A DNA stretch of 62,392 nt, counting the filler. It is 7 parts of 7 records of this genome, joined end to end, with 100 filler letters (N's around TTAATTAATTAA, not from the genome) between each part and the next. Parts side by side here need not be neighbours in the genome. Positions count along the whole stretch, not along the records: positions 1 to 17,894 come from SRR31147125_11927; 6 more parts are not named here. One strand, written 5' to 3'. Position 1 is the stretch's first letter; each line of letters opens with the position of its first letter. Shown here piece after piece: positions 1,332 to 56,785 of the stretch. The translations under genes and the position numbers were made by a program. Below the pieces are notes generated by a model, which had not been told where the DNA came from, made no database searches, and saw only the letters and a program-made list of their open reading frames with translations.

Positions 1332-1355
1332 TCTGTATTCATATCCGAATACAGA
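1332..1355. promoter_or_regulatory. Palindromic operator copy 1 (tctGTATTC-atatcc-GAATACaga)
   Basis: Core at 1335-1352 with 9-bp perfect arms; same core recurs in five other intergenic regions. Confidence 0.8.
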
Positions 1356-1370
1356 TAAATCTGGAAAGCA

Positions 1371-1398
1371 CAACTTAGTGCTTTAGGATGCCGATAAT
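1371..1398 (+). promoter_or_regulatory. Sigma28-like promoter CAAC-N17-CGATAAT
   Basis: GCCGATAA at 1390-1397 is the sigma28 -10 consensus; RBS GGAGG at 1411, ATG at 1420. Confidence 0.65.
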
Positions 1399-1419
1399 AA
1401 TTAAGAACAGGGAGGTTCT

Positions 1420-2514
1420 ATGAAGAAAAAAAATATATCTAATTTGTTCTCTATTCTTGTGCTTGCGACACTCCTTATTAGCGTTGTAGCCTGTGGTGAC
1501 GCTGCAAGGGTCGCAGAAGAGCTTACGCCCGAAGGTTATCCGGTGGTTAATGGGACATATAGTGTCGTTTCTACGACATGTTCCTTTGCTGAATTGGGAG
1601 CCGGTTTCAGTATTTCACAGGATGAAGCTTCCTTGAGTATTTCAGCAAGTGTTGGCTCAGGGGTAATGGGTGCACCAGATACCGAGGGCTATGCGTCTTC
1701 ATCGGCTGTAGCAGGTGAAGAAATAGTAGAAGAGTTTGAAGTCGCTGAACAGTTCGATGAAACTAAAAGTGCAGAGAAGTCTTCTGATATCGAGATGGAG
1801 ATCTATGTTGATGGATATGCAGATTATTATCCCGCAGATTCCATGTATGGAGAAGCTGCTGGTGGTAATTCATCTTTAGCCGGTGAAAATGTTTCATTTT
1901 CTACAGCAGAGATTTCCAAAGAAGGCGAAGTGACCTTAACTGTTTCTAGTGGAACAGTCAGTTATGATTGTGAAGGCTTATACTATGGGGGAGCTGTTTC
2001 TTTAAGTTGTGGAAAAGAAGATGATATCACTAGTCAGGATTGCACCTTGATAGTTAATAAGATAAGTGATGAAACCCCAGCGATACCATATTCAGCAGAG
2101 ACCGAGGAACCCGTTTCTCCACCTTCAGGCAATAATCCTCCATCCACACCTTTGTCTGAGGAGTTTCAGTCTGTAAATGAAATTAATCATGCTAAACTTC
2201 AGGAAAACGTAGTGGGTTCATGGTGTAATAATTCAAAATTGTCGGATATTAAGGCAATTACTATAAATTCCGCACTAGATATTAATCTCATTATTAAAGA
2301 TAAAAATGATTTAATAGCTAAAGAGGCAGTGATGTTTGAATATGATGCCCAATCGATAGAGTTGAAATATCCACCTTATTTAGATGATGTAAAAATTGAA
2401 TTTAACGATCAGTATGATGAATTCTTGCTAACAATTAAAAAAGTCGATGGTAGTATTGTAAAATATCTATTTATATTTAATGGCGAAGAATCCAATTCTT
2501 GTCTGGTTGATTAG
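1420..2514 (+). CDS. Acidic lipoprotein of unknown function
   Basis: Signal peptide with lipobox VVAC; strong RBS. Confidence 0.75.
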   Translation: MKKKNISNLFSILVLATLLISVVACGDAARVAEELTPEGYPVVNGTYSVVSTTCSFAELGAGFSISQDEASLSISASVGSGVMGAPDTEGYASSSAVAGEEIVEEFEVAEQFDETKSAEKSSDIEMEIYVDGYADYYPADSMYGEAAGGNSSLAGENVSFSTAEISKEGEVTLTVSSGTVSYDCEGLYYGGAVSLSCGKEDDITSQDCTLIVNKISDETPAIPYSAETEEPVSPPSGNNPPSTPLSEEFQSVNEINHAKLQENVVGSWCNNSKLSDIKAITINSALDINLIIKDKNDLIAKEAVMFEYDAQSIELKYPPYLDDVKIEFNDQYDEFLLTIKKVDGSIVKYLFIFNGEESNSCLVD

Positions 2515-2796
2515 TTAATTGTTTATGAATATGGAACTCTTCTTTCTTAGATTCGAGATTTAGAGAAAAGGGCAACGTTCCTCACTTTTTATAAGGGAGT
2601 AACTTCCTATATGATAGACTTTGTCAGAAAGGTCCAAGAGTATTTTTAGATCATATATAATAGCGTTCGAGTGAGGCTTGGCAATCCAGAACTTGAAGAG
2701 GGTCCTCTGGGCGCAAAATAATTGTTGGCTCTGCCGAAAAACATCAATGAGATCCAAAGTTGAGGCTTCTAAATAAAATTAGTTGATTGAAAGAGT

Positions 2797-2829
2797 AGCG
2801 TCTACTTTAAATATATCAAAGTAGACGCT
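2797..2829. terminator. Intrinsic terminator hairpin between convergent genes
   Basis: AGCGTCTACTTT / AAAGTAGACGCT 12-bp stem. Confidence 0.7.
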
Positions 2830-2849
2830 GTCTCTTTGTTTGGGGGAGT

Positions 2850-4196
2850 TTATTGTAGAATTAGAGAACAACCACCTGATGCTGGGGGAGCTGTTGTGGT
2901 TGTGCTATCGTCTTCTGTGTCGCTTTCTTCAGATTCACTCTCATCTTCTTCGCTATCATCCTCAGTTTCACTATCTTCTTCTGAAGGGGAGTCTTCTGTT
3001 TCTTCAAGGCATGAGCTGTCACATCCATCTCCATCATCGAGGTTGCCATCATCGCATTCCTCACTAATATCCGTCTGAACAACTCCATCGCTGCAATATG
3101 CTTCAATAGCACCAAGGTCACAGGTTGAGACTCTATCTTGACCAATCTGATCTGTAGGAACATTTGCAGTGCAATAGGAGGCTTCTCCACCATCGATGGC
3201 GGGACTTCCGCTTTGTAATATATATCTTCCAAGACCAAAGTCTGTAGATCCGGAGAGTGCTGAAAGAAGAGGGTCCACTGCTGTTGCATCATCTTCCGTT
3301 GCAGTACATCCCACAAAGTCTTCAAGGATGTTATATCCATTTGATTCATTAACTGCGCCAATACAGTCATTGCCAGTAGTCGTGGCTGTATTCCCAGCTA
3401 TGATTGTATTTGTAATATTGAGTTCGCCCGTTGTATATATGCCTCCACCCTCATCGGCATTATTATCAGTGATAGTCGCGTTGACAAGATTGATTGTCGA
3501 GGCCTCGTTTCCAAATATTGCTCCCCCTAACTTTAAGTCTGATGAGTTGCCAGCTATTGTGGTGCTTTTAGCAGAAAAGGTTCCTGAGGTGTAGATGCTG
3601 CCTCCTGAAAGATTTCCTATGTTATTATAGATAAAGCTATTTACTACTCTAGCTGAGGAAGAGTTGTGAATTGCGCCTCCTAGACTGGCTTCACAATCCC
3701 TTATTGTAACTCCTGATACTGTTAGTGTGCCGCTGTTAGCGATTGCTCCACCGAAATTGGCGCCTGATATAAGTCCATTTGCTAGTGTGCAGTCTTCTAG
3801 GATTAGGAGTGACGAGGTGTTATACAATAATCTGAATTCATCTATTCCTTCACTATCATCTCTAGTTAGCGTTGAGTTATTACATTTTATTTGGAGGGCA
3901 TCGCTAATTATGGGTAGGGCTGATTTACTTTCATAGATTTCAGTAAAAGTATAGGTCTCATCATCTTGAAGTTCAATTACGTCTGCTTCAATATCAGAAC
4001 CTGCTGTACATGCGTCAACGGCTAGATTGGTATTTGCCGCTTCGATTGCCTCTGCTAAAGTGCAATTGCCATTGTCTTCAAGAGGACTCTCTTGCGTTGT
4101 TGAATCGACAGTGATTGTGGCTGCAAAGCTAAAAGTGTAAAAAGTTGTGATAGCTAAAACTAAAGTGATGTTGATTAGATTTTTAAATGTTCTCAT
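2850..4196 (-). CDS. Secreted CSLREA / choice-of-anchor Q beta-helix protein with a Myxococcus-type Cys-rich repeat and C-terminal GGCSL motif
   Basis: Signal peptide; GNCTLAEAIEAAN; GGAI repeats; GSPAIDGG...CDLGAIE; CSDGVV...EECDDGN..DGDGCDSSC; acidic linker. Confidence 0.85.
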   Translation of the reverse strand: MRTFKNLINITLVLAITTFYTFSFAATITVDSTTQESPLEDNGNCTLAEAIEAANTNLAVDACTAGSDIEADVIELQDDETYTFTEIYESKSALPIISDALQIKCNNSTLTRDDSEGIDEFRLLYNTSSLLILEDCTLANGLISGANFGGAIANSGTLTVSGVTIRDCEASLGGAIHNSSSARVVNSFIYNNIGNLSGGSIYTSGTFSAKSTTIAGNSSDLKLGGAIFGNEASTINLVNATITDNNADEGGGIYTTGELNITNTIIAGNTATTTGNDCIGAVNESNGYNILEDFVGCTATEDDATAVDPLLSALSGSTDFGLGRYILQSGSPAIDGGEASYCTANVPTDQIGQDRVSTCDLGAIEAYCSDGVVQTDISEECDDGNLDDGDGCDSSCLEETEDSPSEEDSETEDDSEEDESESEESDTEDDSTTTTAPPASGGCSLILQ

Positions 4197-4230
4197 GGAT
4201 ATCTCCTCTTCAATATATAAATTATATATA

Positions 4231-4258
4231 ATTATCGACGTCTGTGGTAGCAGTGTTG
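4231..4258 (-). promoter_or_regulatory. Sigma28-like promoter CAAC-N17-CGATAAT
   Basis: Reverse complement reads CAAC actgctaccacagacgt CGATAAT upstream of the ATG at 4196. Confidence 0.65.
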
Positions 4259-4278
4259 CGGTTTAAAGGCGATTATCT

Positions 4279-4296
4279 GTATTCGTTTATGAATAC
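4279..4296. promoter_or_regulatory. Palindromic operator copy 2
   Basis: GTATTC gtttat GAATAC. Confidence 0.8.
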
Positions 4297-4359
4297 GGAA
4301 AACTTCAGTACTGATATGATTTTGTTGCATCTGCTATAAGTAGAATTTATGTATACTAA

Positions 4360-5502
4360 ATGACTTTTTGCAACGATGTGAGAGACGATTCTAAAGCATA
4401 TAGACTTTGCGAGTTCATTCGCAAAAAATATAATTATAAAAAGAATGACTTTGATAAGTGCCTTTTACGAACAGTTCATAAGGATAAAGAACGAGCCGTT
4501 AATGTCTGTACCGATCCTGGAGCTGAAATTACGCCTGAGCAGGTTAGGGAAACAGCTTTTTCATTGATCGAAAAAGAACTGTTTGATCAAAAAGATAAAT
4601 TGCGGAGAGGAAGAGAGTTTTGTTCACCTCTTTTGAGGTTCTTTGAAGATGTGGAAGATTTAAAAGTTCCTTGGATTACCAAAGATAAATATCTTTTTCT
4701 GCATTCTGAGTTGGCTTGTGAAAAAGCTAAGGAAATCATATCTGATGGCGGTGTATTGAATGGTTCTTCTGGATATAAAAAAATGTTAGCTCGTAAGGCT
4801 TGGGAGTATATCAGTAAACCAAAAGAAGATGGTGGTTTGGGGCTAGAGTTTGATCCTTTTCATAATTCACCACAGAAGAATTATGATGAGGTTGTTGAAA
4901 AAGGATTTGGGACGTGTCATGAGATAACCCTTATGGTTATGCTTTTTAGGCAGTGGGGCTTGGATGCACATCCTGTAGATATTTATACGAACAATTCTGG
5001 ACAATATATTGATCATATGGGGATTGGTGTCAAAATAACTAGAGACCAGGTTATGATTGTTGATCCTCAATTGGGTATTGAAATTGTTAGTCAGAGTAAG
5101 ACGAGTTTAAAAAAATGGACCTTTGTCTCTATGTCAGATTTTATGGCTGATCACTTAAATAATAGAGCCAATCTGAATGCTAAGTATTGGCCTGATGACG
5201 AAAAATATTCATTTATGAGAAAGAATTACGGTCAGGCATTGCTCTATGGTGCAAGTAACTATCTTGTATTGTATTGTGCCGCAAATTTTGAAGATGAGTA
5301 TAATAACAATCTAGAAGTTGCTGTAAGGCACGCGTTGTCGTCTATGAGGGCCAATCCTTATTATCCAAACACCTATTTACTATTGATTGATCTTTACGAA
5401 AAACTCGGTGTTTATAATTCGACAACGTCCTATTGCGATCGGTATAAGGCTTTAACTGGAAATCAACACTGTTCAACAGAGGTATTGTACTCCACTTACT
5501 GA
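4360..5502 (+). CDS. Transglutaminase-like (Cys-His-Asp) domain protein with C-terminal TPR-like helices
   Basis: GTCHE, DHMG and IVDP motifs; ANPYYPNTYLLLIDLYEKLG is TPR-like. Confidence 0.6.
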   Translation: MTFCNDVRDDSKAYRLCEFIRKKYNYKKNDFDKCLLRTVHKDKERAVNVCTDPGAEITPEQVRETAFSLIEKELFDQKDKLRRGREFCSPLLRFFEDVEDLKVPWITKDKYLFLHSELACEKAKEIISDGGVLNGSSGYKKMLARKAWEYISKPKEDGGLGLEFDPFHNSPQKNYDEVVEKGFGTCHEITLMVMLFRQWGLDAHPVDIYTNNSGQYIDHMGIGVKITRDQVMIVDPQLGIEIVSQSKTSLKKWTFVSMSDFMADHLNNRANLNAKYWPDDEKYSFMRKNYGQALLYGASNYLVLYCAANFEDEYNNNLEVAVRHALSSMRANPYYPNTYLLLIDLYEKLGVYNSTTSYCDRYKALTGNQHCSTEVLYSTY

Positions 5503-5504
5503 AC

Positions 5505-6788
5505 CTACATAGCTATTGCAACAACCTCTATCGAAGTGTCTTCTTGTTTTTGAAGTTCCTTCTCAATTCTAGCTATGGTTTTTGGAGGGTAGGCCAAGTA
5601 GTAAGTCTTTTTTGATGTTTTGTATTTAACTAGCGACCATCCTTTTTGTCCTCGATCAACCCAGCTTTCTATATATTCAAGACCACTGTTTTCGTCCTTA
5701 AAGGTTGATACGGGCTTGTACTGAAAATCCCCCAATTTTAGTGTGATATTCTGTTTAATTGCACTGGCCCTGGTTGGTTTTCTTCGTCTAGTCTTGCGTG
5801 AGCTTCTTGTGATTGCAGTAGAGTAGATGGTTTCTCTTCCAGAAGGTAAAACTGGTTTCAGTTCTGGCGATTTTAACGCAGTGTCTAGTGTAAATAATGG
5901 TGAGATAGGTTTCGGATTCTCCATGGAAGCTGATATCTCTCTAAATGAAGGGACTCTTGGTCTGTCCTTCATTTTATTCTTTGGTTGTATAACTGTTTTG
6001 GCCAACTCAGCCCTACCTCTGTCGTCTAGAGTGAGGGATGGGGTGCCAATAGTAAAAGTTGGGAGGTCTCCCGTCATGGCAGCGAGATGTTTTCTAACAG
6101 TCTCTGTAGCTTCTGGATCATTTTTTAGAAATATAGGTTTTGGATTCTTTGAAACTGCTGCCATCCAGGCCTCTTCTTGTCTTGCTTCAATGTCTTTTAC
6201 GTGATTTGTAACTCTAGCTCTTTTTCTGGGTTTTAAGGTGGCCACTTCGGATGTTTTTGCCACATCTGTAGGGCTAGATGGCTCGGCGTGTAAAGGTATT
6301 TTGATGTTTGGTGTTTCTTTTGTCAATTCTAAGTCTTTAGCTGGAGTATCGATAGGTTTGGTTCTAGAGGGATCACTGTTTGCAGATGTTGGGAGGTCTC
6401 CCGTCATCGCAGCGACATGTTTCCTTATAGTTTCTGCCGCTTCTGTATCATTTTTTAGAAAGTTAGGTTTTGCTGAAGCTCTTTCCAACCACTGCTCTTT
6501 AATGTTTTCTACATGATTTGTAACTTTAGCTCTCTTTCTAGCTTTCAAGGTTACTACTTCGGATGCTTTTGCTATGTCTGAAGAGCTTAATAGCCCAGGG
6601 GCCTCTGAAGGCCTTTTTTTGATGGGCATTTTCCCTAAGAAAGAAAGGTCTCTGGCTGGATCGTCGATAAATTTGCTTTTATATGTAATCTCTTTTCCAT
6701 CAATACCCTTAGATGTTTTCTTTGCAGGTGGGGTAGGCAGAGTTCTCTCTTCGATTACCCTTATAGTCTTTTTTGTCACTTTCTTCAT
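5505..6788 (-). CDS. Basic hypothetical protein with an internal ~65-70 aa duplication
   Basis: Likely start MKKVTKK at 6788 (RBS GGAGG at 6793-6797); two copies of SEV.TLK.RKRA.VTNHV...FLKND.EA.ET.RKH.AAMTGDLPT. Confidence 0.7.
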   Translation of the reverse strand: MKKVTKKTIRVIEERTLPTPPAKKTSKGIDGKEITYKSKFIDDPARDLSFLGKMPIKKRPSEAPGLLSSSDIAKASEVVTLKARKRAKVTNHVENIKEQWLERASAKPNFLKNDTEAAETIRKHVAAMTGDLPTSANSDPSRTKPIDTPAKDLELTKETPNIKIPLHAEPSSPTDVAKTSEVATLKPRKRARVTNHVKDIEARQEEAWMAAVSKNPKPIFLKNDPEATETVRKHLAAMTGDLPTFTIGTPSLTLDDRGRAELAKTVIQPKNKMKDRPRVPSFREISASMENPKPISPLFTLDTALKSPELKPVLPSGRETIYSTAITRSSRKTRRRKPTRASAIKQNITLKLGDFQYKPVSTFKDENSGLEYIESWVDRGQKGWSLVKYKTSKKTYYLAYPPKTIARIEKELQKQEDTSIEVVAIAM

Positions 6789-6828
6789 ACAACCTCCAAT
6801 TGTTTCCCTTCGTAAACTCTTCAATATA

Positions 6829-6856
6829 ATTATCGGTTCACTTCTTAGAATTGTTG
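6829..6856 (-). promoter_or_regulatory. Sigma28-like promoter CAAC-N17-CGATAAT
   Basis: Reverse complement reads CAAC aattctaagaagtgaac CGATAAT. Confidence 0.65.
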
Positions 6857-6885
6857 TTTTGTTTGTTGGCTGACAAAGAAAATGT

Positions 6886-6903
6886 GTATTCATTTGCGAA
6901 TAC
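6886..6903. promoter_or_regulatory. Palindromic operator copy 3, shared by divergent promoters
   Basis: GTATTC atttgc GAATAC, 29 bp from the CAAC box on each side. Confidence 0.8.
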
Positions 6904-6932
6904 GGATAATGGGTGTTTGCCGATTATTCTGA

Positions 6933-6958
6933 CAACACTTCTTTTCTCTTTGCGATAT
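6933..6958 (+). promoter_or_regulatory. Sigma28-like promoter CAAC-N16-CGATAT
   Basis: Upstream of RBS AGGAGG (6975) and ATG at 6986. Confidence 0.55.
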
Positions 6959-6985
6959 ATCTTGTGAAGGGAAAAGGAGGTATCT

Positions 6986-8772
6986 ATGTCAGTGTTAGGA
7001 AAAAGTATAATTGGTCTTAACTTAAATCAAATTATGTTCAGGGCTCCCAAATCGAAAGACAAACCTGTAAAAGCTAAGGGCGAGAATGATATGTTCTCTA
7101 GTGTTGGTAGTGAGATTACTAAGGCTCTTAATAAGGTGGTTCAGAATAGTGGTTCGAAAGTAGGCAGCGATGATAAAGATCGAAGTGTTGCTGTGTCGAG
7201 ATTTATCAGAGAAATTCTATCCATGAATCATAAGGGACAGCTTCATATTAAGAGAGAACTCGGTTTTTCTGATAATCATAAGTTGACTGCAAAAGAAATT
7301 TACCATTGGGTGATTGAAAAGGGCGGATCAGGTTTTATTAAAGGTGTTATGGAAACTGGTCGAGGAAGGCTTCGTGCTTGCCAACTAAGGTTCAGGAATA
7401 ACTATTCTGCGCATAGAGAAGAGGGTAGACGCTTGATAGCAGACTCTTTAATGTCAGAACGAGTTGAAAAGTATTCGGGCTTGAAACAAAAATATTCTGA
7501 AAGTAAATCTTTGGACGTTTTAGTGGAGTATGCAAATTCGAAGAAAGAACTCCAGGACATCTTCTATACAAAAATTCTTCCTTATCCAACCTATGAGAAG
7601 GCGGCCAGTGCCGGTATTTTTAGTTCCTATATTACAACTCATAACATAATTCTTACAGGCCTTTATGATGTTGAGCTTGCTGGCGTTCAATTTGTAAAAC
7701 CGTTTAAGGGCGCTCAGAGGGCATTGGTGAATAATTCTGCTGCTGGAACAGGTAGGAGTGGGTTGACATGGAAAATAGATGGAGAATACCTAAAGGTTAC
7801 AGCTGGAAAGAGGGAATATTCATACAAAATAAATCGTGATAACTCCTTAACCTATACCACTGATAGGGGAAAGAAGATTATTTATACACCGCAGGGTAAG
7901 CGGATCAATGGAAAAGGTACGAGTAAGTATATTCCAAAGCTTGGTCTTAACTGGAAGTATAAACCAGTTCCTTCAGAAAAACGTGTTGCCATGGTCAAGC
8001 TGTCTGATGTCGAAAGGCAATCTGTAAAGAGAGTTGTTTCTAATCGTCTTGATAGAGATGTTGTTGTTGGAAAATATGATAATGCGACAGTTTGGGTGAC
8101 GCCAAAGTATGGAGTTAGTAGATATCTGATTGGTAAAGTAACTAAAGGCGAGAGGGGAAGATATTTTATTACACTTGGTAAAAAACTAGATGGGAAAAAA
8201 TATCCTTTGATTCAAGGGCTTCAGGTGGCGAAGGGCTATCTTGGAGAATATGAACGTTCAAGAAAAGCTGTAGTCGATGCTAAGAATAGAAAGAAAGAAG
8301 TTGCTAAGAGTCGATATGAAAAAATGACAGATCTCTTGAACCAATATAACAGCTTGTTGTCTTCCATAAAGTCTGACCATCAATTGCTTGTTAATGGAAG
8401 CGAAACTGATTCTACAAAGCGTTTTCCCTCGATGGGATTACTGCATTCAATTCAAAAAAGGAATTAGGCGACGAGAGTGTCTTTAATGCAAGTAGTAGAG
8501 GGTTGTTAGAGCAATATAAAACCAGGCTAGATAACTTGATAGGTCAACTTGATGGAGATCAGGGATTAATTGAATATATGAGTTCTGATAGTGGCCTAGA
8601 GGTTGTGTCCAGTCTCTATTATAATCTAACCTATTCCGAGACGTCTGATCAGGTGAGAAAAAAGAGAGATGAAAAAGTCTCAAAACTAAAGACAACCCTT
8701 AGAACTGCAAACAGTCTAAGAAGAGAAATGGCGTCACTACTAAACTCAAGCATAGCATCTCAGAAGGAATGA
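6986..8772 (+). CDS. Large basic hypothetical protein, probably one gene split by a 1-nt loss in an A6 run (8454-8459)
   Basis: Adding one A joins ORF 6986-8467 to 8503-8772 with no intervening stop (IQKKELGDESVFNASSRGLLEQY...). Confidence 0.6.
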
Positions 8773-9656
8773 AAAAGGAAGGCGTAAAAATGTCGATAGG
8801 AATACTGAACTCATTAACATCAAAATTTAATAAGATTATTAAATCACCTTGGATGCCTAATAGAGATAGTGTTAAAGAAGGTGAAATAGTGAGGCGTATT
8901 AACTTTGGTATATTTGGGGAAAAGCATCATGCGAAATTACTTTATTTGGGCTTAGGCTCAGAGAATAATTTTAGTAGAGGTATTAGTGGGTTGACTTTAG
9001 CTCTGCTTCGTAATCACTCTGATAGAAATTTGAATGGTCTAAGTGTTAGCGGAATAATGAATAGTTCTGAGGGAGCTATGAAGGGCGTTCAAATATCTAT
9101 TATGCATAATGAAGCTTGTCTGGGAAGTATGAGTGGTCTCCAGTTGGGAGGAAATAATATCTCTTATAGGAGTATGAGGGGAGTTCAAATAGCATTATCG
9201 GGTAATGCAACTGGCAGAAATATGAGCGGTGTTCAGTTGGGAGGTTTATGTAATAGAGCTTTTTTAGGTGAAATGAGCGGTGTTCAAGGTTCATTACTAA
9301 ATTATTCCTATTTTGATATGACTGGTGTGCAATCGGCATTTATAAATTTATCCGAAAGAGGCGACATAAAAGGTTTCCAGGTAGGCAATGTAAATGCAGC
9401 ATTGGACGGTGATCTCGACGGTTTTCAGGTTGGTGTAATCAACTATGCAGGGAGAGATATGAAGAGGGTTAAGCTGGGGCTTTTAAATATTTGGCACGGT
9501 GGAAAATGCTTTTGCCCTGGTGCAAATATTGTCTGTATCCCAACAGACTGGTCGTCAAACGAATCTGCAATGAAGAGCGCTGTTGAGCATGTGGCTATCA
9601 GTAGAAACAGAACATCGCCGATGAAATCGATTGCGTACTTAGGCTCATCGCTTTAA
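8769..9656 (+). CDS. G(V/L/F)Q-repeat beta-solenoid protein (LA_2272-like repeats)
   Basis: Tandem ~16-17 aa repeats MxGVQxxxxNxA; start may be 8790. Confidence 0.7.
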   Translation: MKKEGVKMSIGILNSLTSKFNKIIKSPWMPNRDSVKEGEIVRRINFGIFGEKHHAKLLYLGLGSENNFSRGISGLTLALLRNHSDRNLNGLSVSGIMNSSEGAMKGVQISIMHNEACLGSMSGLQLGGNNISYRSMRGVQIALSGNATGRNMSGVQLGGLCNRAFLGEMSGVQGSLLNYSYFDMTGVQSAFINLSERGDIKGFQVGNVNAALDGDLDGFQVGVINYAGRDMKRVKLGLLNIWHGGKCFCPGANIVCIPTDWSSNESAMKSAVEHVAISRNRTSPMKSIAYLGSSL

Positions 9657-9705
9657 AAACTCACAGATTAAAAATGTACTTTGTTTAGTACGTTGAGAGG
9701 GCAAG

Positions 9706-10413
9706 ATGAAGATTACATCATTAAATGTTTCGAAAAAGGAAGATAAATGTGTTGCAATTGGTGAGGCTAAAACATTCAACAGTGAAGAGGTTTTAAAGAT
9801 AGCAAGAAATAATGGTGCTCCAGATGTTTTAGAAGATTGCGACCTCTATGAAATGAAAGTGGCTGATAAAAGAGGAAGTGTAGGAGAGATTGCCATGAAG
9901 TCATCTGAAATTAAATCTCTATTTTATAAGAATTGTAAGCCCTTGCAAGGTGATGTTTTGACAAAGAGATTAGAGTTCTTTAGAAAATATCCAACGATGA
10001 TGGATTTAATAACGCTAGCTACCCAGAATGAGGGCAACCCAATTAGGTTTCTTGAGGAATATTTCTCTTTTTTGACTGAAATTCATGAGGAATATAGTGT
10101 TCCCTTTGTGATGACTGAATTTAATATGTTTGCAAATATAGTAGAGGAATATGTATCTCAGGGCGCTGAGATATTGCTATGGTCATGTTCGACTGATAAT
10201 TTCCCTGATGTTTTTATGAAGAGTTTGTTTTTGGGCATGATGGATAAATATCTACTCTCTTCTAGCAGTAAGGATAAAGAGCGTACAGCATCACTAATAG
10301 GTTCTTGCCTAAGCCGGGCTTCAAACTCACGTATGAAGATGTTTAGAAAGTTTATTACTCAGCCCAAATACGTTCCAGTGTTAATGAGATTGTTCAAAGA
10401 TATTCATAGATAG
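9706..10413 (+). CDS. Hypothetical protein
   Basis: 235-aa ORF with GAGAGG RBS. Confidence 0.6.
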   Translation: MKITSLNVSKKEDKCVAIGEAKTFNSEEVLKIARNNGAPDVLEDCDLYEMKVADKRGSVGEIAMKSSEIKSLFYKNCKPLQGDVLTKRLEFFRKYPTMMDLITLATQNEGNPIRFLEEYFSFLTEIHEEYSVPFVMTEFNMFANIVEEYVSQGAEILLWSCSTDNFPDVFMKSLFLGMMDKYLLSSSSKDKERTASLIGSCLSRASNSRMKMFRKFITQPKYVPVLMRLFKDIHR

Positions 10414-10518
10414 AAGGGCTTCATCCCAAAACAGAACAAGTAAACTACTGGTGAGCTAGCGTGTTGACACTTTTGAGTCTTTTGTATGATATCATAATTT
10501 CATTAAATGGGATTGTCT

Positions 10519-10648
10519 TTTTAACCTTGAGTTTTGGGATTGAAGCTTAGCTCTTAATTGTTGCAATAACTGGATGAGCTGGTTAGGTTAAGGAAAACAA
10601 GGGGTAAATATGAATTTATCGAAACTAATTTTCTTCTCCAATAATTAA
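10519..10648 (+). repeat. Degenerate copy of the leader and first codons of the TraB/GumN gene (15996-16093)
   Basis: aattgttgcaataa..ggatg.gctggttag.tt.aggaaa.caa...aaatATGAATTTATCGA is shared; this copy ends in a 12-aa ORF. Confidence 0.7.
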
Positions 10649-10653
10649 AGGTT

Positions 10654-11127
10654 TTACAGAATCAGATCAAGTGTTAGGGGATTCTGTGTTGACCCTTCAA
10701 AACTCATATCCATTCTTAAAAGAGAGGCTTCAAGCAGCATGGCTTCAGAGGGTGTGACCTGAGCCTCAGCAAAACCATAAAGAGCGCCGATCACAACGTT
10801 AGCTTTGTGCGGGTCAATAGTCTTAGTGAAAGAAGCATCTGTGCCTATTATATGCGTTCCTATGTGGCAAGGTTTATACGTGATCGAACCCTCTGTAATG
10901 TATATTTTAGGGTTTTGATGTTTTACAAATCTAACTTTTCCTGTATTATCCAAAAAGTGTGTGAGAGTTATTGCACAATCCTTACTAGTCGAATATGTAT
11001 CAATGCCTATTTGGCCATCACACGTTGATCCAATAAAGAATTCTCGCCCGACATGCCTTTCTTCTATTATGTCTTTGCCCACAAAACTGTTTATCGCATT
11101 CTTAATTTTCTTTGTTATCTGTATCAT
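10654..11127 (-). CDS. Hypothetical protein
   Basis: 157-aa ORF with AAGGAAG RBS. Confidence 0.55.
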   Translation of the reverse strand: MIQITKKIKNAINSFVGKDIIEERHVGREFFIGSTCDGQIGIDTYSTSKDCAITLTHFLDNTGKVRFVKHQNPKIYITEGSITYKPCHIGTHIIGTDASFTKTIDPHKANVVIGALYGFAEAQVTPSEAMLLEASLLRMDMSFEGSTQNPLTLDLIL

Positions 11128-11152
11128 TTAGACTTCCTTTGATTTGTTAATG

Positions 11153-11671
11153 TTATTGCTTTGCTTCGTTGCTTTTCATGTAGCTACGGATCTCTCGAGT
11201 TATTGATTTAGGGAGCGACTGAAAAATGTATTTTTCTTCAAAGTTGGATAACTGTTTTTCAATGAAAAGAATATTACCAGCCTTATCTGTGCTGCTAATG
11301 GTATATCTAAGGGTTTTGAGCTGAGTGCCCTCATTAATTTCAATAGAAAAAATTATTTCTCCCTCCATGCTTGGTTTTAAGGTTCTTAGCAAGCTCATAA
11401 CATGACTTTTTGTAATAGGATATTTGTTAAGCAGAGTGTCTGTTCCGTTGTCTATTCTAATCGAGCTTTGCATAGGGTTGTGAGATAAAAATAATTTGTT
11501 TCGAACATCAATAATGCATGAAAGTTGCTTCTGGGGGATTTGTTTGTTAGTTCCTCTAATAAAAAGTTCTCCCTTATCAACGGATCCGTTGTTGTTACTG
11601 TCTCTCCAAGCTAGCTTGTCTAGGTTTACTTTGGTTTTGTTGCAGACTATTACTGGACTTTTATTTATCAC
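11153..11671 (-). CDS. Hypothetical protein with an EF-hand-like loop
   Basis: GTG start with AGGAGG RBS; DSNNNGSVDKGE. Confidence 0.6.
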   Translation of the reverse strand: MINKSPVIVCNKTKVNLDKLAWRDSNNNGSVDKGELFIRGTNKQIPQKQLSCIIDVRNKLFLSHNPMQSSIRIDNGTDTLLNKYPITKSHVMSLLRTLKPSMEGEIIFSIEINEGTQLKTLRYTISSTDKAGNILFIEKQLSNFEEKYIFQSLPKSITREIRSYMKSNEAKQ

Positions 11672-11741
11672 GGTATTCCTCCTTAAAAAAGGTGCTTAGA
11701 TTTTTCGGCGACACAGAGTGATCGTCGTTTATTATATTTAT

Positions 11742-11768
11742 TTTCTCGACGACCTTAAGGATTAGTTG
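11742..11768 (-). promoter_or_regulatory. Sigma28-like promoter variant CAAC-N16-CGAGAA
   Basis: Reverse complement reads CAAC taatccttaaggtcgt CGAGAAA. Confidence 0.5.
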
Positions 11769-11797
11769 CTCTAAAACTTAAAAGATAAAGATTATTC

Positions 11798-11815
11798 GTA
11801 TTCGTTCTAGAATAC
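11798..11815. promoter_or_regulatory. Palindromic operator copy 4
   Basis: GTATTC gttcta GAATAC. Confidence 0.8.
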
Positions 11816-11884
11816 AGTTGTTCATCGCTTATGATGTTTTATGCTATAAAGATTAAATAGTAGTTGTTTTGCTAAATTGATGCA

Positions 11885-12337
11885 CTACTTGCGACAGCAA
11901 TCAGGGGTTCCAGCACATTCAGGAATTTCGGGTTGTTCGCTTTCGCTGTTTTCATTATCAATATCTGCTTCAGATATTGGAGAGTTTTTACTTTTGCAGT
12001 AGCTCTCGAAATTTAGACAGTCATTATATAGCGAATTGATAGTTTCAGAGAGATTAATGGATGAGCCATCAGGCAGTCCGTCACCCTCATCAATTACTTC
12101 GTCCAAAGATACTTCTACATTTTTCAGAGCTGCATAACATTCATTCTGACATCTGCACGATATGCGATCGAAGCCGATTAATCCCTCAAAATATTTCACC
12201 CATTCACCATAGCAAAACATCTGAGTGGCTTTTGTGACATCATAAGCTACTCTGGACTCTCTAGCACCAAGGTTCTTTGTGAGGAGAGCAGTTCCAAGAG
12301 CTATAACGACAAACAAAATAACAGTTAACTTCTTCAT
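11885..12337 (-). CDS. Small secreted Cys-rich protein
   Basis: Signal peptide, multiple Cys residues, GGAGG RBS. Confidence 0.7.
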   Translation of the reverse strand: MKKLTVILFVVIALGTALLTKNLGARESRVAYDVTKATQMFCYGEWVKYFEGLIGFDRISCRCQNECYAALKNVEVSLDEVIDEGDGLPDGSSINLSETINSLYNDCLNFESYCKSKNSPISEADIDNENSESEQPEIPECAGTPDCCRK

Positions 12338-12366
12338 GTTTCACCTCCGTTAATATTTATATTGCT

Positions 12367-12394
12367 ATTATCGTCCTCATGTAAGTTGAAGTTG
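12367..12394 (-). promoter_or_regulatory. Sigma28-like promoter CAAC-N17-CGATAAT
   Basis: Reverse complement reads CAAC ttcaacttacatgagga CGATAAT. Confidence 0.65.
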
Positions 12395-12413
12395 TCCAAT
12401 AGGTTGATAAACT

Positions 12414-12431
12414 GTATTCGAGTTAGAATAC
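12414..12431. promoter_or_regulatory. Palindromic operator copy 5
   Basis: GTATTC gagtta GAATAC. Confidence 0.8.
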
Positions 12432-12665
12432 ACGCAATCTAGAATGTCTGATTTGTTTCTATTTGATTTCTATGAAATTCAGATAGAGAGTCGGAAAGGC
12501 TAAGTCTCATTGTGTGCTAGTGTCCTCAATTTTGGGAATTCTCTAATGATTACGTCTGTATTCAGAAAGCTAGCTATATTATGCGGTAAGGCCCTTTCTT
12601 TATCCGTCTATATATTTCTTAACATCTTGTATTTATTATGCTATTATATATTCAAGTGAATAGGG

Positions 12666-12687
12666 GTGTATTCAAACTTGAATACAC
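12666..12687. promoter_or_regulatory. Palindromic operator copy 6, upstream of the TIGR02147 gene
   Basis: gtGTATTC aaactt GAATACac. Confidence 0.8.
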
Positions 12688-12704
12688 TTAGTCTGTTTCG
12701 GGCA

Positions 12705-12732
12705 CAACTTTGAATACACTTCAGCCGATAAT
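12705..12732 (+). promoter_or_regulatory. Sigma28-like promoter with a GAATAC half-site inside its spacer
   Basis: CAAC tttGAATACacttcagc CGATAAT; contains GCCGATAA. Confidence 0.7.
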
Positions 12733-12768: not shown

Positions 12769-13608
12769 ATGATATTAAAAGAGATAAATCTTTTCGAATT
12801 TACGTCCTACAGAGAGTTTCTAAGTGAATACTACAGAGTTAAGAAAGAGCTTTCTCCATATTTTTCACATCGTGTCTTTGTAAGGATGTGTGGTTTTAGT
12901 TCTCCAAATTTCCTAAAGCTTGTTATGGAAGGGCAGAGAAATTTAGGAAAGAAGGCTTTGGAAAAATTGATGACATCTTTGAAGTTCAATAAGATGGAAC
13001 GGGAATATTTCACAGCTCTTGTTAGTTTTGAGCATTCTGATTCAATGGATGAGAAGGGTGTTCATATGACAACCATTGCAAGGCTACGTCATAGGACAGG
13101 GGTCAAGACTATTGAAACTGATAGATATGAATATCTTTCCCATTGGCTCAATGTTGCTGTTAGAGAACTGATCTCTTTAGATGACTTTGAAGAAGATGTC
13201 TCTTGGGTGAATGGGAAACTTGATATCTCTTTAACAGAGAAAAAATTTACAGATATTATTGATAAACTCATTAAATTAAAACTTGTTAGACGTGGAAAGA
13301 ACGGAAAGCTACATCAAAAAGCGTCTACGTTAGTATGTTCTCCGGAGATATATTCTGTAGCCGTAAATAGCTATCATAATGAAATGATTGCGAAGGCTCA
13401 GGAGGCGATAGAGAAAAGCAGTAAAAATAGAGATTTATCGGCTCTCACCTTCAGCACGGATTCCGAGACATATGAGAGAATTCGTGGTATAATAAAAAAA
13501 TGTCGTGAGGAAATTCATCATGTTGCTGATGAATCGAAGAACAAGGAAGCTGTTTACCAGGTGAATTTCCAGTTCTTTAATCTTTCGGAGGTTAGTTGTG
13601 AAAATTAA
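12769..13608 (+). CDS. TIGR02147 family protein (N-terminal HTH plus DUF4423)
   Basis: YREFL..YY..KK...PYFSHR.F....GFSSPNFLKLVMEGQRNL; W...AVREL; RDLSALT; VYQVNFQFF; ~280 aa. Confidence 0.88.
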   Translation: MILKEINLFEFTSYREFLSEYYRVKKELSPYFSHRVFVRMCGFSSPNFLKLVMEGQRNLGKKALEKLMTSLKFNKMEREYFTALVSFEHSDSMDEKGVHMTTIARLRHRTGVKTIETDRYEYLSHWLNVAVRELISLDDFEEDVSWVNGKLDISLTEKKFTDIIDKLIKLKLVRRGKNGKLHQKASTLVCSPEIYSVAVNSYHNEMIAKAQEAIEKSSKNRDLSALTFSTDSETYERIRGIIKKCREEIHHVADESKNKEAVYQVNFQFFNLSEVSCEN

Positions 13609-14176
13609 AAAATCTCTTCTTTTTGTTGTAATGGCCATCGTGTTTCTTGGCTTCGGATGCTCAGGTAGCGGAACAGAGGTTCTAAATCCTTCTGATGTTA
13701 ATGATACGGAACAGCTAACAGAATTTGAAAGCGAGCCTTATAAATTTTCGTTTTCATTATCTGGTTCATGGGATGAGACAGAGTATTCTGAAACAAATCC
13801 AGTTCCAGGGGATATATATAATGATCCGGTTGGAACTGCAAACCCTATTGCCGATTTGTCACAGGGAGATTCTGAAATCTTTGTATATGAAGACAATCTT
13901 TCAGAGGGTGAGAGTTTGACAGCTTACGTTGCTGCAAGAATTGGTGCAGAGGATATTACAGATACAACTACTAGAGATAATCTTGAAATAACAGTAGTGG
14001 ATTATGATGTTCCACCCGCCGGTTCAATTTTTGCTATGAGCATTTTTACTACAAATGGTGATAAGGTTATAACAACGCGCTTGGAATCAAATGAGGATAC
14101 CTTGATTGCAAGGATGACTGTGGTTGGTCAGTTTATTGAAATTGTTGATACGATTTCTATTCCTGATGAAGAGTGA
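13598..14176 (+). CDS. Lipoprotein overlapping the end of the TIGR02147 gene
   Basis: GTG start with GGAGG RBS; lipobox GFGC followed by SGSGTEVLNP. Confidence 0.8.
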   Translation: MKIKKSLLFVVMAIVFLGFGCSGSGTEVLNPSDVNDTEQLTEFESEPYKFSFSLSGSWDETEYSETNPVPGDIYNDPVGTANPIADLSQGDSEIFVYEDNLSEGESLTAYVAARIGAEDITDTTTRDNLEITVVDYDVPPAGSIFAMSIFTTNGDKVITTRLESNEDTLIARMTVVGQFIEIVDTISIPDEE

Positions 14177-15886: not shown

Positions 15887-16080
15887 TAGATTCGTCGTTG
15901 ATTGTGGTCCATAGCGCTCAGTGTCCCTAATAAAGTTATCTTCATCTTTTCTTTTGCGAGATTAGTGAGATGAGCTATTAATTCCTATATTTGTTTTTTA
16001 ACTGTGAGTTTAAAGCTTCACTTTAAATTGTTGCAATAATGGGATGGGCTGGTTAGCTTGAGGAAAGCAAAGGAACAAAT

Positions 16081-16992
16081 ATGAATTTATCGATACAAAA
16101 TAAAAATATAAAGAGAAGAGTTGCTATAGTGCTAGTGTTTATAACTGTTTTGATGTTGTTAATGTCTAGTAGTGGTGTTTGTTTTGCTGGCTCTAATTCC
16201 CTGTGGGAGATAAAGTCGAAAAACAGTTCGGTATTTCTCCTCGGATCTATTCATCTTTTAAACAAAGATTCTTATCCTCTTGATCAGTCGATTGAAAATG
16301 CATATCAGAAGAGTCAGGTTGTTATGTTTGAGACAGATCTTGCTAAAATGAGCAGCCCTCGTGTTAAAAAACGTATTGTTGATGAGGGTTTTCTGCCATC
16401 TAACCAAACTCTAAGTAGTGTACTTTCAAAAAACACTTATCGATCGCTAACAAAGTTGGTATTGCAGTCGGGCTTGTCGATGGCCTCTTTTTCGCGACTC
16501 AAACCATGGCTGTGTGCTATGACATTAACCCTAATGGAAGAGGAGAAGTTGGGGTTCTTACCCCAATATGGTATTGATAACTATTTTTATGAAAAAGCCA
16601 GAGTGGATAGGAAAAGAATCCTAGCTTTAGAGTCTGTTGATGATCAGCTCAGTCTTTTTTCCGGCTTAGATAGTGTAGAGCAAGAAAGAATGTTAAATCA
16701 AACTATATTGGAAATGCAGGTCATTAAAAAAAATGTCTCCAAAATGATTTCTTATTGGAAGACTGGAAAGAGTCAGAGGTTTGCGGCTTTAATTCAAGAG
16801 GGTTTTAAGGGCCAGCCTGAAATGTATAATAAATTCATTATAGATAGAAATAATGAATGGTTACCAATTATTGTTGCTTTAGTTGAAAAAAATGAAAGTG
16901 CCCTAGTTGTTGTTGGTAATGCTCACTTGGTAGGTGACGGTAGTGTTATTGATCTCTTAAAGAAGAGAGGGTATGACGTTATTCAGAAGTAG
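16081..16992 (+). CDS. TraB/GumN family secreted protein
   Basis: LWEI...FLLGSIH; LKPW; GID; LES..DQ; DRN..W; VVVGNAHLVG. Confidence 0.92.
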   Translation: MNLSIQNKNIKRRVAIVLVFITVLMLLMSSSGVCFAGSNSLWEIKSKNSSVFLLGSIHLLNKDSYPLDQSIENAYQKSQVVMFETDLAKMSSPRVKKRIVDEGFLPSNQTLSSVLSKNTYRSLTKLVLQSGLSMASFSRLKPWLCAMTLTLMEEEKLGFLPQYGIDNYFYEKARVDRKRILALESVDDQLSLFSGLDSVEQERMLNQTILEMQVIKKNVSKMISYWKTGKSQRFAALIQEGFKGQPEMYNKFIIDRNNEWLPIIVALVEKNESALVVVGNAHLVGDGSVIDLLKKRGYDVIQK

Positions 16993-17894: not shown

Positions 17895-17994
17895 NNNNNN
17901 NNNNNNNNNNNNNNNNNNNNNNNNNNNNNNNNNNNNNNTTAATTAATTAANNNNNNNNNNNNNNNNNNNNNNNNNNNNNNNNNNNNNNNNNNNN
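17895..17994. other. Artificial contig spacer
   Basis: N44-TTAATTAATTAA-N44. Confidence 0.98.
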
Positions 17995-24079: not shown

Positions 24080-24179
24080 NNNNNNNNNNNNNNNNNNNNN
24101 NNNNNNNNNNNNNNNNNNNNNNNTTAATTAATTAANNNNNNNNNNNNNNNNNNNNNNNNNNNNNNNNNNNNNNNNNNNN
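24080..24179. other. Artificial contig spacer
   Basis: N44-TTAATTAATTAA-N44. Confidence 0.98.
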
Positions 24180-31105: not shown

Positions 31106-31205
31106 NNNNNNNNNNNNNNNNNNNNNNNNNNNNNNNNNNNNNNNNNNNNTTAATTAATTAANNNNNNNNNNNNNNNNNNNNNNNNNNNNNNNNNNNNNNN
31201 NNNNN
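31106..31205. other. Artificial contig spacer
   Basis: N44-TTAATTAATTAA-N44. Confidence 0.98.
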
Positions 31206-42000: not shown

Positions 42001-42100
42001 NNNNNNNNNNNNNNNNNNNNNNNNNNNNNNNNNNNNNNNNNNNNTTAATTAATTAANNNNNNNNNNNNNNNNNNNNNNNNNNNNNNNNNNNNNNNNNNNN
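42001..42100. other. Artificial contig spacer
   Basis: N44-TTAATTAATTAA-N44. Confidence 0.98.
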
Positions 42101-48931: not shown

Positions 48932-49031
48932 NNNNNNNNNNNNNNNNNNNNNNNNNNNNNNNNNNNNNNNNNNNNTTAATTAATTAANNNNNNNNNNNNN
49001 NNNNNNNNNNNNNNNNNNNNNNNNNNNNNNN
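48932..49031. other. Artificial contig spacer
   Basis: N44-TTAATTAATTAA-N44. Confidence 0.98.
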
Positions 49032-56685: not shown

Positions 56686-56785
56686 NNNNNNNNNNNNNNN
56701 NNNNNNNNNNNNNNNNNNNNNNNNNNNNNTTAATTAATTAANNNNNNNNNNNNNNNNNNNNNNNNNNNNNNNNNNNNNNNNNNNN
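56686..56785. other. Artificial contig spacer
   Basis: N44-TTAATTAATTAA-N44. Confidence 0.98.

Follow-up and report, generated by a model that had tools for sequence, protein, structure and literature searches.

Six GTATTC-N6-GAATAC palindromes as candidate operators of a TIGR02147/DUF4423 protein in an island of orphan genes

Results

Organisation of the island

The window analysed here is a stretch of 62,392 nucleotides made up of seven contigs joined via six N44-TTAATTAATTAA-N44 linkers (17895-17994, 24080-24179, 31106-31205, 42001-42100, 48932-49031 and 56686-56785). The GC content of the pieces varies from about 0.30 to 0.50 and they may therefore not all belong to one organism. Our subject is contig 1 (1-17894, about 37% GC), which carries all six perfect copies of the palindrome GTATTC-N6-GAATAC found in the window. 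The palindromes are spread over a 12-kb gene island, and directly behind the sixth lies a gene for a TIGR02147/DUF4423 protein, the likely binder, which was overlooked in the preliminary description of this DNA. For ease of reference the palindromes are called operators 1 to 6, a putative role that is weighed below. The features are as follows (promoter boxes are pattern matches).

1335-1352, no strand: operator 1, GTATTCATATCCGAATAC, 18 bp upstream of a CAAC box
1371-1397, plus strand: promoter box CAAC-N17-CGATAA
1420-2514, plus strand: candidate target gene, an orphan of no family and probable lipoprotein (hydrophobic N-terminal stretch followed by Cys, by eye), with GGAGG before the ATG
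4279-4296, no strand: operator 2, 20 bp from a minus-strand CAAC box
4232-4258, minus strand: promoter box CAAC-N17-CGATAA
2850-4196, minus strand: candidate target gene, a secreted orphan with a choice-of-anchor Q domain (NF041518, 34.8 bits) and a cysteine-rich acidic repeat (TIGR02232, 31.9 bits)
4360-5502, plus strand: possible target gene of uncertain membership, sharing operator 2; its plus side has no CAAC/CGATA box or clear ribosome-binding site
6886-6903, no strand: operator 3, with boxes on both flanks at 29 bp
6830-6856, minus strand: promoter box CAAC-N17-CGATAA
5505-6788, minus strand: candidate target gene, an orphan with its start set at the ATG at 6788 and two internal repeats of about 300 nt
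6933-6957, plus strand: promoter box CAAC-N16-CGATA
6986-10413, plus strand: genes 6986-8467, 8769-9656 (with an LA_2272-type surface repeat) and 9706-10413, all orphans and, from their shared strand and close spacing, probably one operon
8503-8772, plus strand: doubtful small open reading frame (ORF) within the preceding feature
11798-11815, no strand: operator 4, 29 bp from a CAAC box
11744-11768, minus strand: promoter box CAAC-N16-CGAGA
10654-11671, minus strand: two orphan genes of no family, 11153-11671 and 10654-11127, probably one operon
12414-12431, no strand: operator 5, 19 bp from a CAAC box
12368-12394, minus strand: promoter box CAAC-N17-CGATAA
11885-12337, minus strand: candidate target gene, a small secreted cysteine-rich orphan of no family
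12558-12563, plus strand: lone GTATTC half-site, distal to operator 6 (110 bp upstream), with AT-rich DNA between
12668-12685, no strand: operator 6, candidate autoregulatory site, kept in relatives
12705-12731, plus strand: promoter box CAAC-N17-CGATAA, whose spacer contains a further GAATAC half-site (12712-12717)
12769-13608, plus strand: TIGR02147/DUF4423 protein, candidate binder, with predicted N-terminal XRE-like helix-turn-helix (HTH), central winged helix and C-terminal dimer interface
13598-14176, plus strand: lipoprotein gene overlapping the end of the regulator gene, a conserved partner (Cys, then GTEVxNP)

Palindromic sites and promoter boxes

A pattern search of the window returned exactly six perfect palindromes, starting at 1335, 4279, 6886, 11798, 12414 and 12668. 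These are the six of the preliminary description, which had also put the number of chance copies at far less than one; the expected number was 0, and none arose in 100 dinucleotide-preserving shuffles. When up to two mismatches were allowed, 10 sites were found against a shuffle mean of 2.96, the four extra ones all being weak. Among the additional half or degenerate sites that had been proposed, 12558 (GTATTC) and 12712 (GAATAC) are single exact hexamers, whereas 2515-2532 is weak, having four mismatches (counted by hand) and only a GAATAT arm. All six palindromes are intergenic, as had been claimed, provided that the minus-strand gene to the left of operator 3 starts at the ATG at 6788. This ATG is preceded by a GGAGG box, and the longest possible ORF (5505-6893) would overlap the operator.

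The seven control regions share no sequence beyond the motifs, save for an AT-rich flank on the promoter side of the palindrome (roughly A-G-(A/T)-T-(A/T)-A-T). Similarity between sites ends by about 27-36 nt and the flanks beyond are unrelated. The palindromes thus do not belong to a longer repeat, a mobile form of which had been named as an alternative from the outset. No Rfam family was detected in the window DNA at E up to 0.1, terminator-like patterns were at shuffle level (11 vs 11.7), and so were sigma-70-like promoters in contig 1 (53 vs 53.2). A mobile repeat, an RNA element and a terminator were rejected on the repeat, Rfam and terminator scans.

The window contains five copies of the box CAAC-N16/17-CGATAA, where 0.20 would be expected. 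Its looser form, CAAC-N16/17-CGA(T/G)A, occurs eight times; seven copies adjoin palindromes and one lies at 28418 in another contig. In the seven, the -35-like box is invariably CAAC (7/7), and the -10 box is CGATAA in 5/7, CGATAT in 1/7 and CGAGAA in 1/7. Taken in the order 1335+, 4279-, 6886-, 6886+, 11798-, 12414- and 12668+, the gaps between palindrome and CAAC are 18, 20, 29, 29, 29, 19 and 19 bp, and the spacers between CAAC and CGA are 17, 17, 17, 16, 16, 17 and 17. The gap values are identical to those first reported and fall, as was then noted, into two classes (18-20 and 29 bp) that are one helical turn (10 bp) apart. Operator 3 has boxes on both sides. Operator 2 has one on the minus side only, and no CAAC/CGATA box was found on its plus side. 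Operators 5 and 6 (12414 and 12668) are separated by 254 bp. Each of the genes downstream of the boxes has a GGAGG-type ribosome-binding site, read by eye. Altogether, the operator-plus-promoter module precedes six further units within 11 kb, all of them orphan genes.

The TIGR02147/DUF4423 protein behind operator 6

The 279-amino-acid protein encoded at 12769-13608 is a full-length member of the uncharacterised family TIGR02147 ('Fsuc_second'; TIGR02147.1, 212 bits, cut-off 50, profile positions 2-271 of 272) and of Pfam DUF4423 (PF14394, 127.7 bits, cut-off 30). Its N-terminal HTH segment reads FSxRxF...G..SPNFLKLV..G.RNL, and these residues are invariant across a 15-sequence alignment. In the AlphaFold2 (AF2) model (pLDDT 81.9), helices are found at 34-40 and 46-53. 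Structure comparison likened residues 12-97 to XRE/HigA-type HTH domains (3pxp, Z 7.4, root-mean-square deviation 3.3 over 81 residues) and residues 115-197 to winged helices, with the best overall match being an unstudied protein (4g6q, Z 8.3). Foldseek comparison with the controller proteins C.BclI, C.AhdI and C.Esp1396I gave probabilities of 0.82-0.96, but E values of at least 0.49.

Homodimer prediction gave an ipSAE of 0.58 against 0.00 for the best control. Of the proteins solved as pairs, 21/30 reached the mark, and of those solved as single chains, 0/23 did. Contacts agreed by at least 94% among three runs, and partner pLDDT was at least 79. The predicted interface consists mainly of residues 199-276 and includes no N-terminal HTH residue. 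The model suggests that the regulator forms a homodimer, which would fit a palindromic operator and would supply the dimeric binder postulated in the preliminary description.

Counterparts of the overlapping lipoprotein gene occur elsewhere. Homologs of 13598-14176 directly follow the regulator in L009, L002, L001, L005 and L012, and lipoprotein genes also lie 3' of it in L003 and L004. A side observation is that in the lipoproteins overlapping the end of the regulator the lipobox Cys is always followed, within a few residues, by G-T-E-V-x-N-P. The genes with this tag are as follows.

Window, 13598-14176: tagged lipoprotein gene
L002, 10819-11397: tagged lipoprotein gene
L009, 10816-11355: tagged lipoprotein gene
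L003, 6693-8132: tagged lipoprotein gene
L004, 10819-12279: tagged lipoprotein gene

The palindrome in relatives and across the family

The closest homologs of the regulator are 49-58% identical and come from uncultured, 'Deltaproteobacteria'-labelled metagenome-assembled genomes. A whole-genome search of the five closest relatives (2-3 Mb) found the perfect palindrome exactly once in four of the five and the control pattern never. These single palindromes precede the operon of the ortholog, three of them at 93-99 bp upstream. The remaining one, in L002, lies 894 bp upstream of the ortholog with one lipoprotein gene between. The 19-bp gap and a CAAC-N17-(C/T)GATAA box are kept in L003, L004, L009 and the L002 genome (G004), and the fifth relative (L001) has GTATTC-N5-GAATAC at the equivalent position. 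A search for GAATAC followed by the gap and the promoter box gave five matches in the five relative genomes, all upstream of TIGR02147 genes, and one match to the control. Moreover, a distal GTATTC is found 87-96 bp upstream of the autoregulatory site in four relatives (110 bp in the window), and a GAATAC lies within the -35/-10 spacer of two of the five autoregulatory promoters, namely those of the window (12712) and L004.

For a wider view of the family we used the best 80 of 204 relatives confirmed by a peptide pattern scan of species-representative genomes, the records of which carry the labels Myxococcota, Bdellovibrionota, Fibrobacterota and others. The peptide pattern includes the putative recognition helix, which biases the proteins sampled but not their upstream DNA. 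The 80 loci span several phyla and 36-73% GC. The density of GTATTC is 3.53 per kb within 300 nt upstream of the 80 family genes, as opposed to 0.173 elsewhere in the loci (20-fold), and 47/80 loci have at least one copy there. It is the commonest upstream hexamer, followed by its own overlapping words and its reverse complement, with 83 occurrences compared with a median of 4 for its 120 same-composition permutations. The perfect N6 palindrome itself stands upstream of the family gene in L003, L004, L009 and L050. When paralogs were added (98 family genes: the 80 loci, 17 paralogs and the window gene), 26/98 carried a perfect 6+6 inverted repeat of GT(A/G)T(T/A)C, which has its arms 4-7 nt apart and lies 43-121 nt ahead of the start.

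Paralogs in one genome carry differing palindromes at the equivalent position: GTATTC with N4, N5 or N7, GTGTTC-N5 and GTATAC-N5. Genes whose putative recognition helix begins with Pro-Asn-Phe (n=77) have 134 GTATTC and 8 GTGTTC hexamers upstream, and those with Ser-Asn-Phe/Tyr (n=12) have 2 and 15, respectively. These counts are suggestive of a half-site variant that follows the start of the recognition helix.

In eight of the loci (L006, L007, L008, L010, L011, L013, L039 and L043) we also observed two direct TGTATTCT boxes at about -155 and -80 from the start codon. These boxes are 73-85 nt apart and enclose extremely AT-rich DNA, even at 58-62% GC.

Multiple sites were seen only in the island. 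Among 61 relatives of G003 none had more than one perfect site and eight had one (control pattern, 5); the context of the sites was assessed with G010, G035, G036, G047 and G049 set aside. Unlike in the window, where it stands before six or seven units, the operator was not seen before further units in these 61 relatives. A metagenome scan for the full module of palindrome, gap and promoter returned seven loci and no further multi-site locus. L139 alone was a true relative, almost duplicating the L004 region and having a TIGR02147 gene behind it; the other loci lay in unrelated or coding contexts. From these sequence comparisons, the regulator seems to control only its own small operon in relatives, and a multi-target regulon seems to be confined to this island.

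The promoter class in relatives

In five relatives (G001-G005, 2-3 Mb) the box CAAC-N16/17-CGATAA occurs 106, 99, 35, 90 and 67 times, compared with 5, 11, 2, 4 and 2 for a reversed control pattern. An ORF of at least 50 amino acids, mostly orphan-like, starts within 250 nt downstream in the 29 distinct promoter cases examined. Given this abundance and placement before gene starts, the box is a lineage-wide promoter class and not private to the island. The non-housekeeping type of promoter proposed in the preliminary description is supported by the same counts (35-106 copies per relative genome vs 2-11 for the control). An A-tract lies upstream of CAAC in 14/29 general promoters vs 1/10 operator-linked ones, a scarcity that weakly fits activator dependence of the latter. 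In the relatives the box often takes the longer form (a/c)gCAACtttt...gcCGATAAt, preceded by an A-tract, and is a candidate global promoter of this uncultured lineage.

Extracytoplasmic function (ECF) sigma factors use promoters with AAC at -35 and CGT at -10. Here the AAC at -35 is present, but the -10 is CGAT or CGAG in 7/7, so there is no CGT core. Compared with sigma-28 promoters, a -10 of the GCCGATAA type is present, whereas the -35 TAAA or TTAAG is absent (CAAC in 7/7) and the targets here are orphans rather than flagellar or chemotaxis genes. Judged by these elements, the promoter appears nearer to the sigma-28 type than to the typical ECF type.

Four of the five relatives encode a sigma factor of about 290-315 amino acids (132-142 bits), although 0/5 exceed the TIGR02479 cut-off. 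In the three relatives whose sigma factors were scanned, the best NCBIfam matches were FliA/WhiG models, all below cut-off. Flagellin (PF00669) was not found in any of the five relatives, the genomes of which may be incomplete. The box may be read by this divergent FliA/WhiG-like sigma factor. Separately, a TGGCATG-N4/5-CTGCA box, sigma-54-like when judged by eye, precedes the FliA/WhiG-like sigma gene in three relatives (L127, about 650-700; L129, about 1300-1350; L130, about 1270-1320). This hints at a sigma-54 to sigma-28-like cascade in relatives without detected flagellin.

Genes of the island

The candidate targets had been described as orphans, some of them secreted or lipoproteins, and this description stands. 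For the 11 orphan proteins encoded between 1420 and 12337, no family above cut-off was found in Pfam, PHROGs or PADLOC, and NCBIfam returned only the two repeat/anchor domains of 2850-4196 and the surface repeat of 8769-9656. Several have a signal peptide or lipobox, as judged by eye. The island proteins are not mutual paralogs (no BLASTP match with E below 0.2). A prophage or defence island was also considered and rejected, as 0/14 island proteins match PHROGs or PADLOC. With the queries used, no homolog of 6986-8467 or 4360-5502 was found in the five relatives. No match to 4360-5502 was present among 1897 candidates of a large protein collection; its one Atlas lead was TPR/transglutaminase-core2, and Atlas gave no usable match for 6986-8467.

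Two repeats were noted within the contig. Gene 5505-6788 contains two tandem internal repeats of ~310-330 nt with 79-87% identity (6058-6142 / 6388-6472 and 6185-6282 / 6497-6594). A second repeat of ~95 nt, with 80-83% identity, is shared by 10535-10628 and 16005-16099 and copies the leader and first codons of a TraB/GumN-family gene (16081) into the intergenic DNA after 10413.

Discussion

A probable self-regulating activator

We consider it somewhat probable that the six palindromes are operators of the TIGR02147/DUF4423 protein, and that this protein is a self-regulating, dimeric, class I-like activator. In the mechanism that we infer, the regulator would dimerise via its C-terminal part, and each N-terminal XRE-like HTH would read one GTATTC half-site, the half-site centres being 12 bp apart. 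At a sigma-28-like promoter the dimer would be placed upstream of the -35-like CAAC, at a distance of 18-20 or 29 bp. Given a transcription start about 7 nt past CGATAA, which we assume by analogy, the sites would be centred near -61.5 (gaps of 18-20) and -71.5 (gap of 29). Class I activators such as CRP have sites centred near -61.5 or -71.5. On this assumed placement we favour a self-activating dimer that would recruit polymerase. The dimer would help RNA polymerase carrying a divergent FliA/WhiG-like sigma factor to initiate, in the geometry of a class I activator. Its targets would be its own two-gene operon (regulator and lipoprotein) and six neighbouring units, whose orphan genes are lineage-specific and in several cases encode secreted proteins or lipoproteins.

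Several observations weigh against this reading. GTATTC is missing from the 300 nt upstream in 33/80 family loci, and three Pro-type loci (L017, L020 and L028) have more GTGTTC than GTATTC. An independent-contrast test of residue-base covariation had only two independent changes to draw on, both (2/2) in the expected direction (sign test, p 0.5). The half-sites within promoter spacers (12712 and L004) could mean repression at high occupancy, and 4360-5502 shares operator 2 yet is without a promoter box. CAAC is unlike known sigma-28 -35 boxes. The structural likenesses are middling, with Z at most 8.3, and may reflect only a common arrangement, and Foldseek gave no whole-chain match at E 0.001 or better. 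Lastly, sites with one mismatch number 4, 7, 4, 2 and 4 in the five relatives compared with 4, 3, 3, 2 and 1 for the control, and a multi-gene regulon is therefore seen only in this contig.

Alternative explanations

The foremost alternative is that the palindromes are indeed bound by the TIGR02147 protein, which would however work chiefly as a repressor or dual regulator, through looping between neighbouring operators (such as 5 and 6) or through the spacer half-site, and not by recruiting polymerase. Many XRE-type HTH proteins are repressors. The extra GAATAC in the protein's own promoter spacer and its counterpart in L004 would suit such a role, as would the distal GTATTC, which in the window and four relatives precedes the autoregulatory site by 87-110 bp. 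However, none of the seven full sites covers the -35-like box, each being placed upstream of it, and two spacing classes one turn apart are the geometry of face-specific contact with polymerase. The shortage of A-tracts at operator-linked promoters (1/10 vs 14/29) weakly points to activation, and the spacer half-site is confined to 2/5 autoregulatory promoters. We regard predominant repression or dual regulation as unlikely.

It is more doubtful still that another, unlinked transcription factor binds GTATTC-N6-GAATAC and that the TIGR02147 gene is merely one of its targets. The covariation test, being underpowered with two pairs, leaves room for such a factor. Yet TIGR02147 genes have GTATTC-type boxes beside them across several phyla and 36-73% GC, paralogs of one genome carry differing variants of the box, and in the relatives neither the perfect site nor the half-site with promoter was found away from family genes. 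A third-party factor would have to co-occur and co-vary with every paralog.

Finally, the palindromes could in principle be non-regulatory (ends or relics of mobile repeats, recombination sites, or transcribed hairpins or terminators), since they can form 6-bp stems and the terminator scan lists 12664-12689 as a weak hairpin, but this is very improbable in view of their fixed distance to a promoter box, the unrelated flanks beyond about 27-36 nt, the shuffle-level number of terminator-like matches (11 vs 11.7), the lack of an Rfam family at E up to 0.1 and the lack of phage or defence families in the 14 island proteins.

Comparison with known systems

We return to the self-regulating activator and what is known of its parts. 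The arrangement, in which a dimeric HTH protein would occupy a palindromic site before a promoter, is of an ordinary kind; the family is uncharacterised. Our search found no published function, DNA site or regulon for TIGR02147/DUF4423, only a passing table entry for Bd3700 in a proteomics study. Under several spellings of the palindrome no publication was found, in a search to which subscription literature and motif databases were external. To that extent the motif is undescribed, in line with the preliminary description.

The candidate activator resembles class I activators of the CRP kind: it has an HTH, is predicted to be dimeric and would bind a palindrome that precedes the -35, and its spacing classes are one turn apart. 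It differs from CRP in having no cAMP-binding domain, and the -61.5 and -71.5 positions rest on the assumed start. A second likeness is to controller (C) proteins, which are small XRE HTH proteins encoded beside restriction-modification genes. The N-terminal fold weakly resembles C.BclI, C.AhdI and C.Esp1396I, and positive autoregulation is probable here as well. In contrast to C proteins, there are no restriction-modification genes in the island (no PADLOC family among 14 proteins), and the window protein, at 279 amino acids, has an added winged helix and a DUF4423 dimer domain.

The nearest parallel for the promoter comes from Bdellovibrio bacteriovorus, in which the FliA consensus TTAAG-N16-CCGATA was reported at 92/140 attack-phase promoters (Karunker et al. 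2013, PMC3627812). The -10 core CGATA(A) is identical and the spacing nearly so. Moreover, as in the Bdellovibrio FliA programme, the box precedes many non-flagellar uncharacterised genes in the relatives (35-106 per genome). The -35 differs, however, being TTAAG there and CAAC here, and the motif reported there has no upstream palindromic operator, which is present here. A further difference from the FliA system is that the sigma factors of the relatives fall below every FliA/WhiG cut-off and flagellin was not found in 5/5 relatives.

Implications

TIGR02147/DUF4423 is a large family, and the island gives it a candidate DNA site together with a set of targets and a probable way of acting. Half-sites that differ from paralog to paralog provide a natural specificity series. 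In addition, the promoter constitutes a high-information class with about 35-106 uses per genome in an uncultured lineage without detected flagellin, which parallels the Bdellovibrio FliA attack-phase programme.

More tentatively, and as a possibility that we would not yet call likely, TIGR02147/DUF4423 proteins could be phylum-spanning self-activating regulators in which each paralog has a private operator code, set by half-site variant and spacer length. An operator-plus-promoter module of ~90 bp would then place newly arisen orphan genes, encoding secreted proteins and lipoproteins, under a global sigma-28-like programme of small-genome uncultured bacteria without detected flagellin, and the co-transcribed lipoprotein would supply or relay an envelope signal. 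The window would hold the first paralog seen to have expanded from autoregulation to a local regulon of about 12 genes. For the organism itself, the regulator probably switches on its own expression together with about a dozen orphan genes, several of which are exported.

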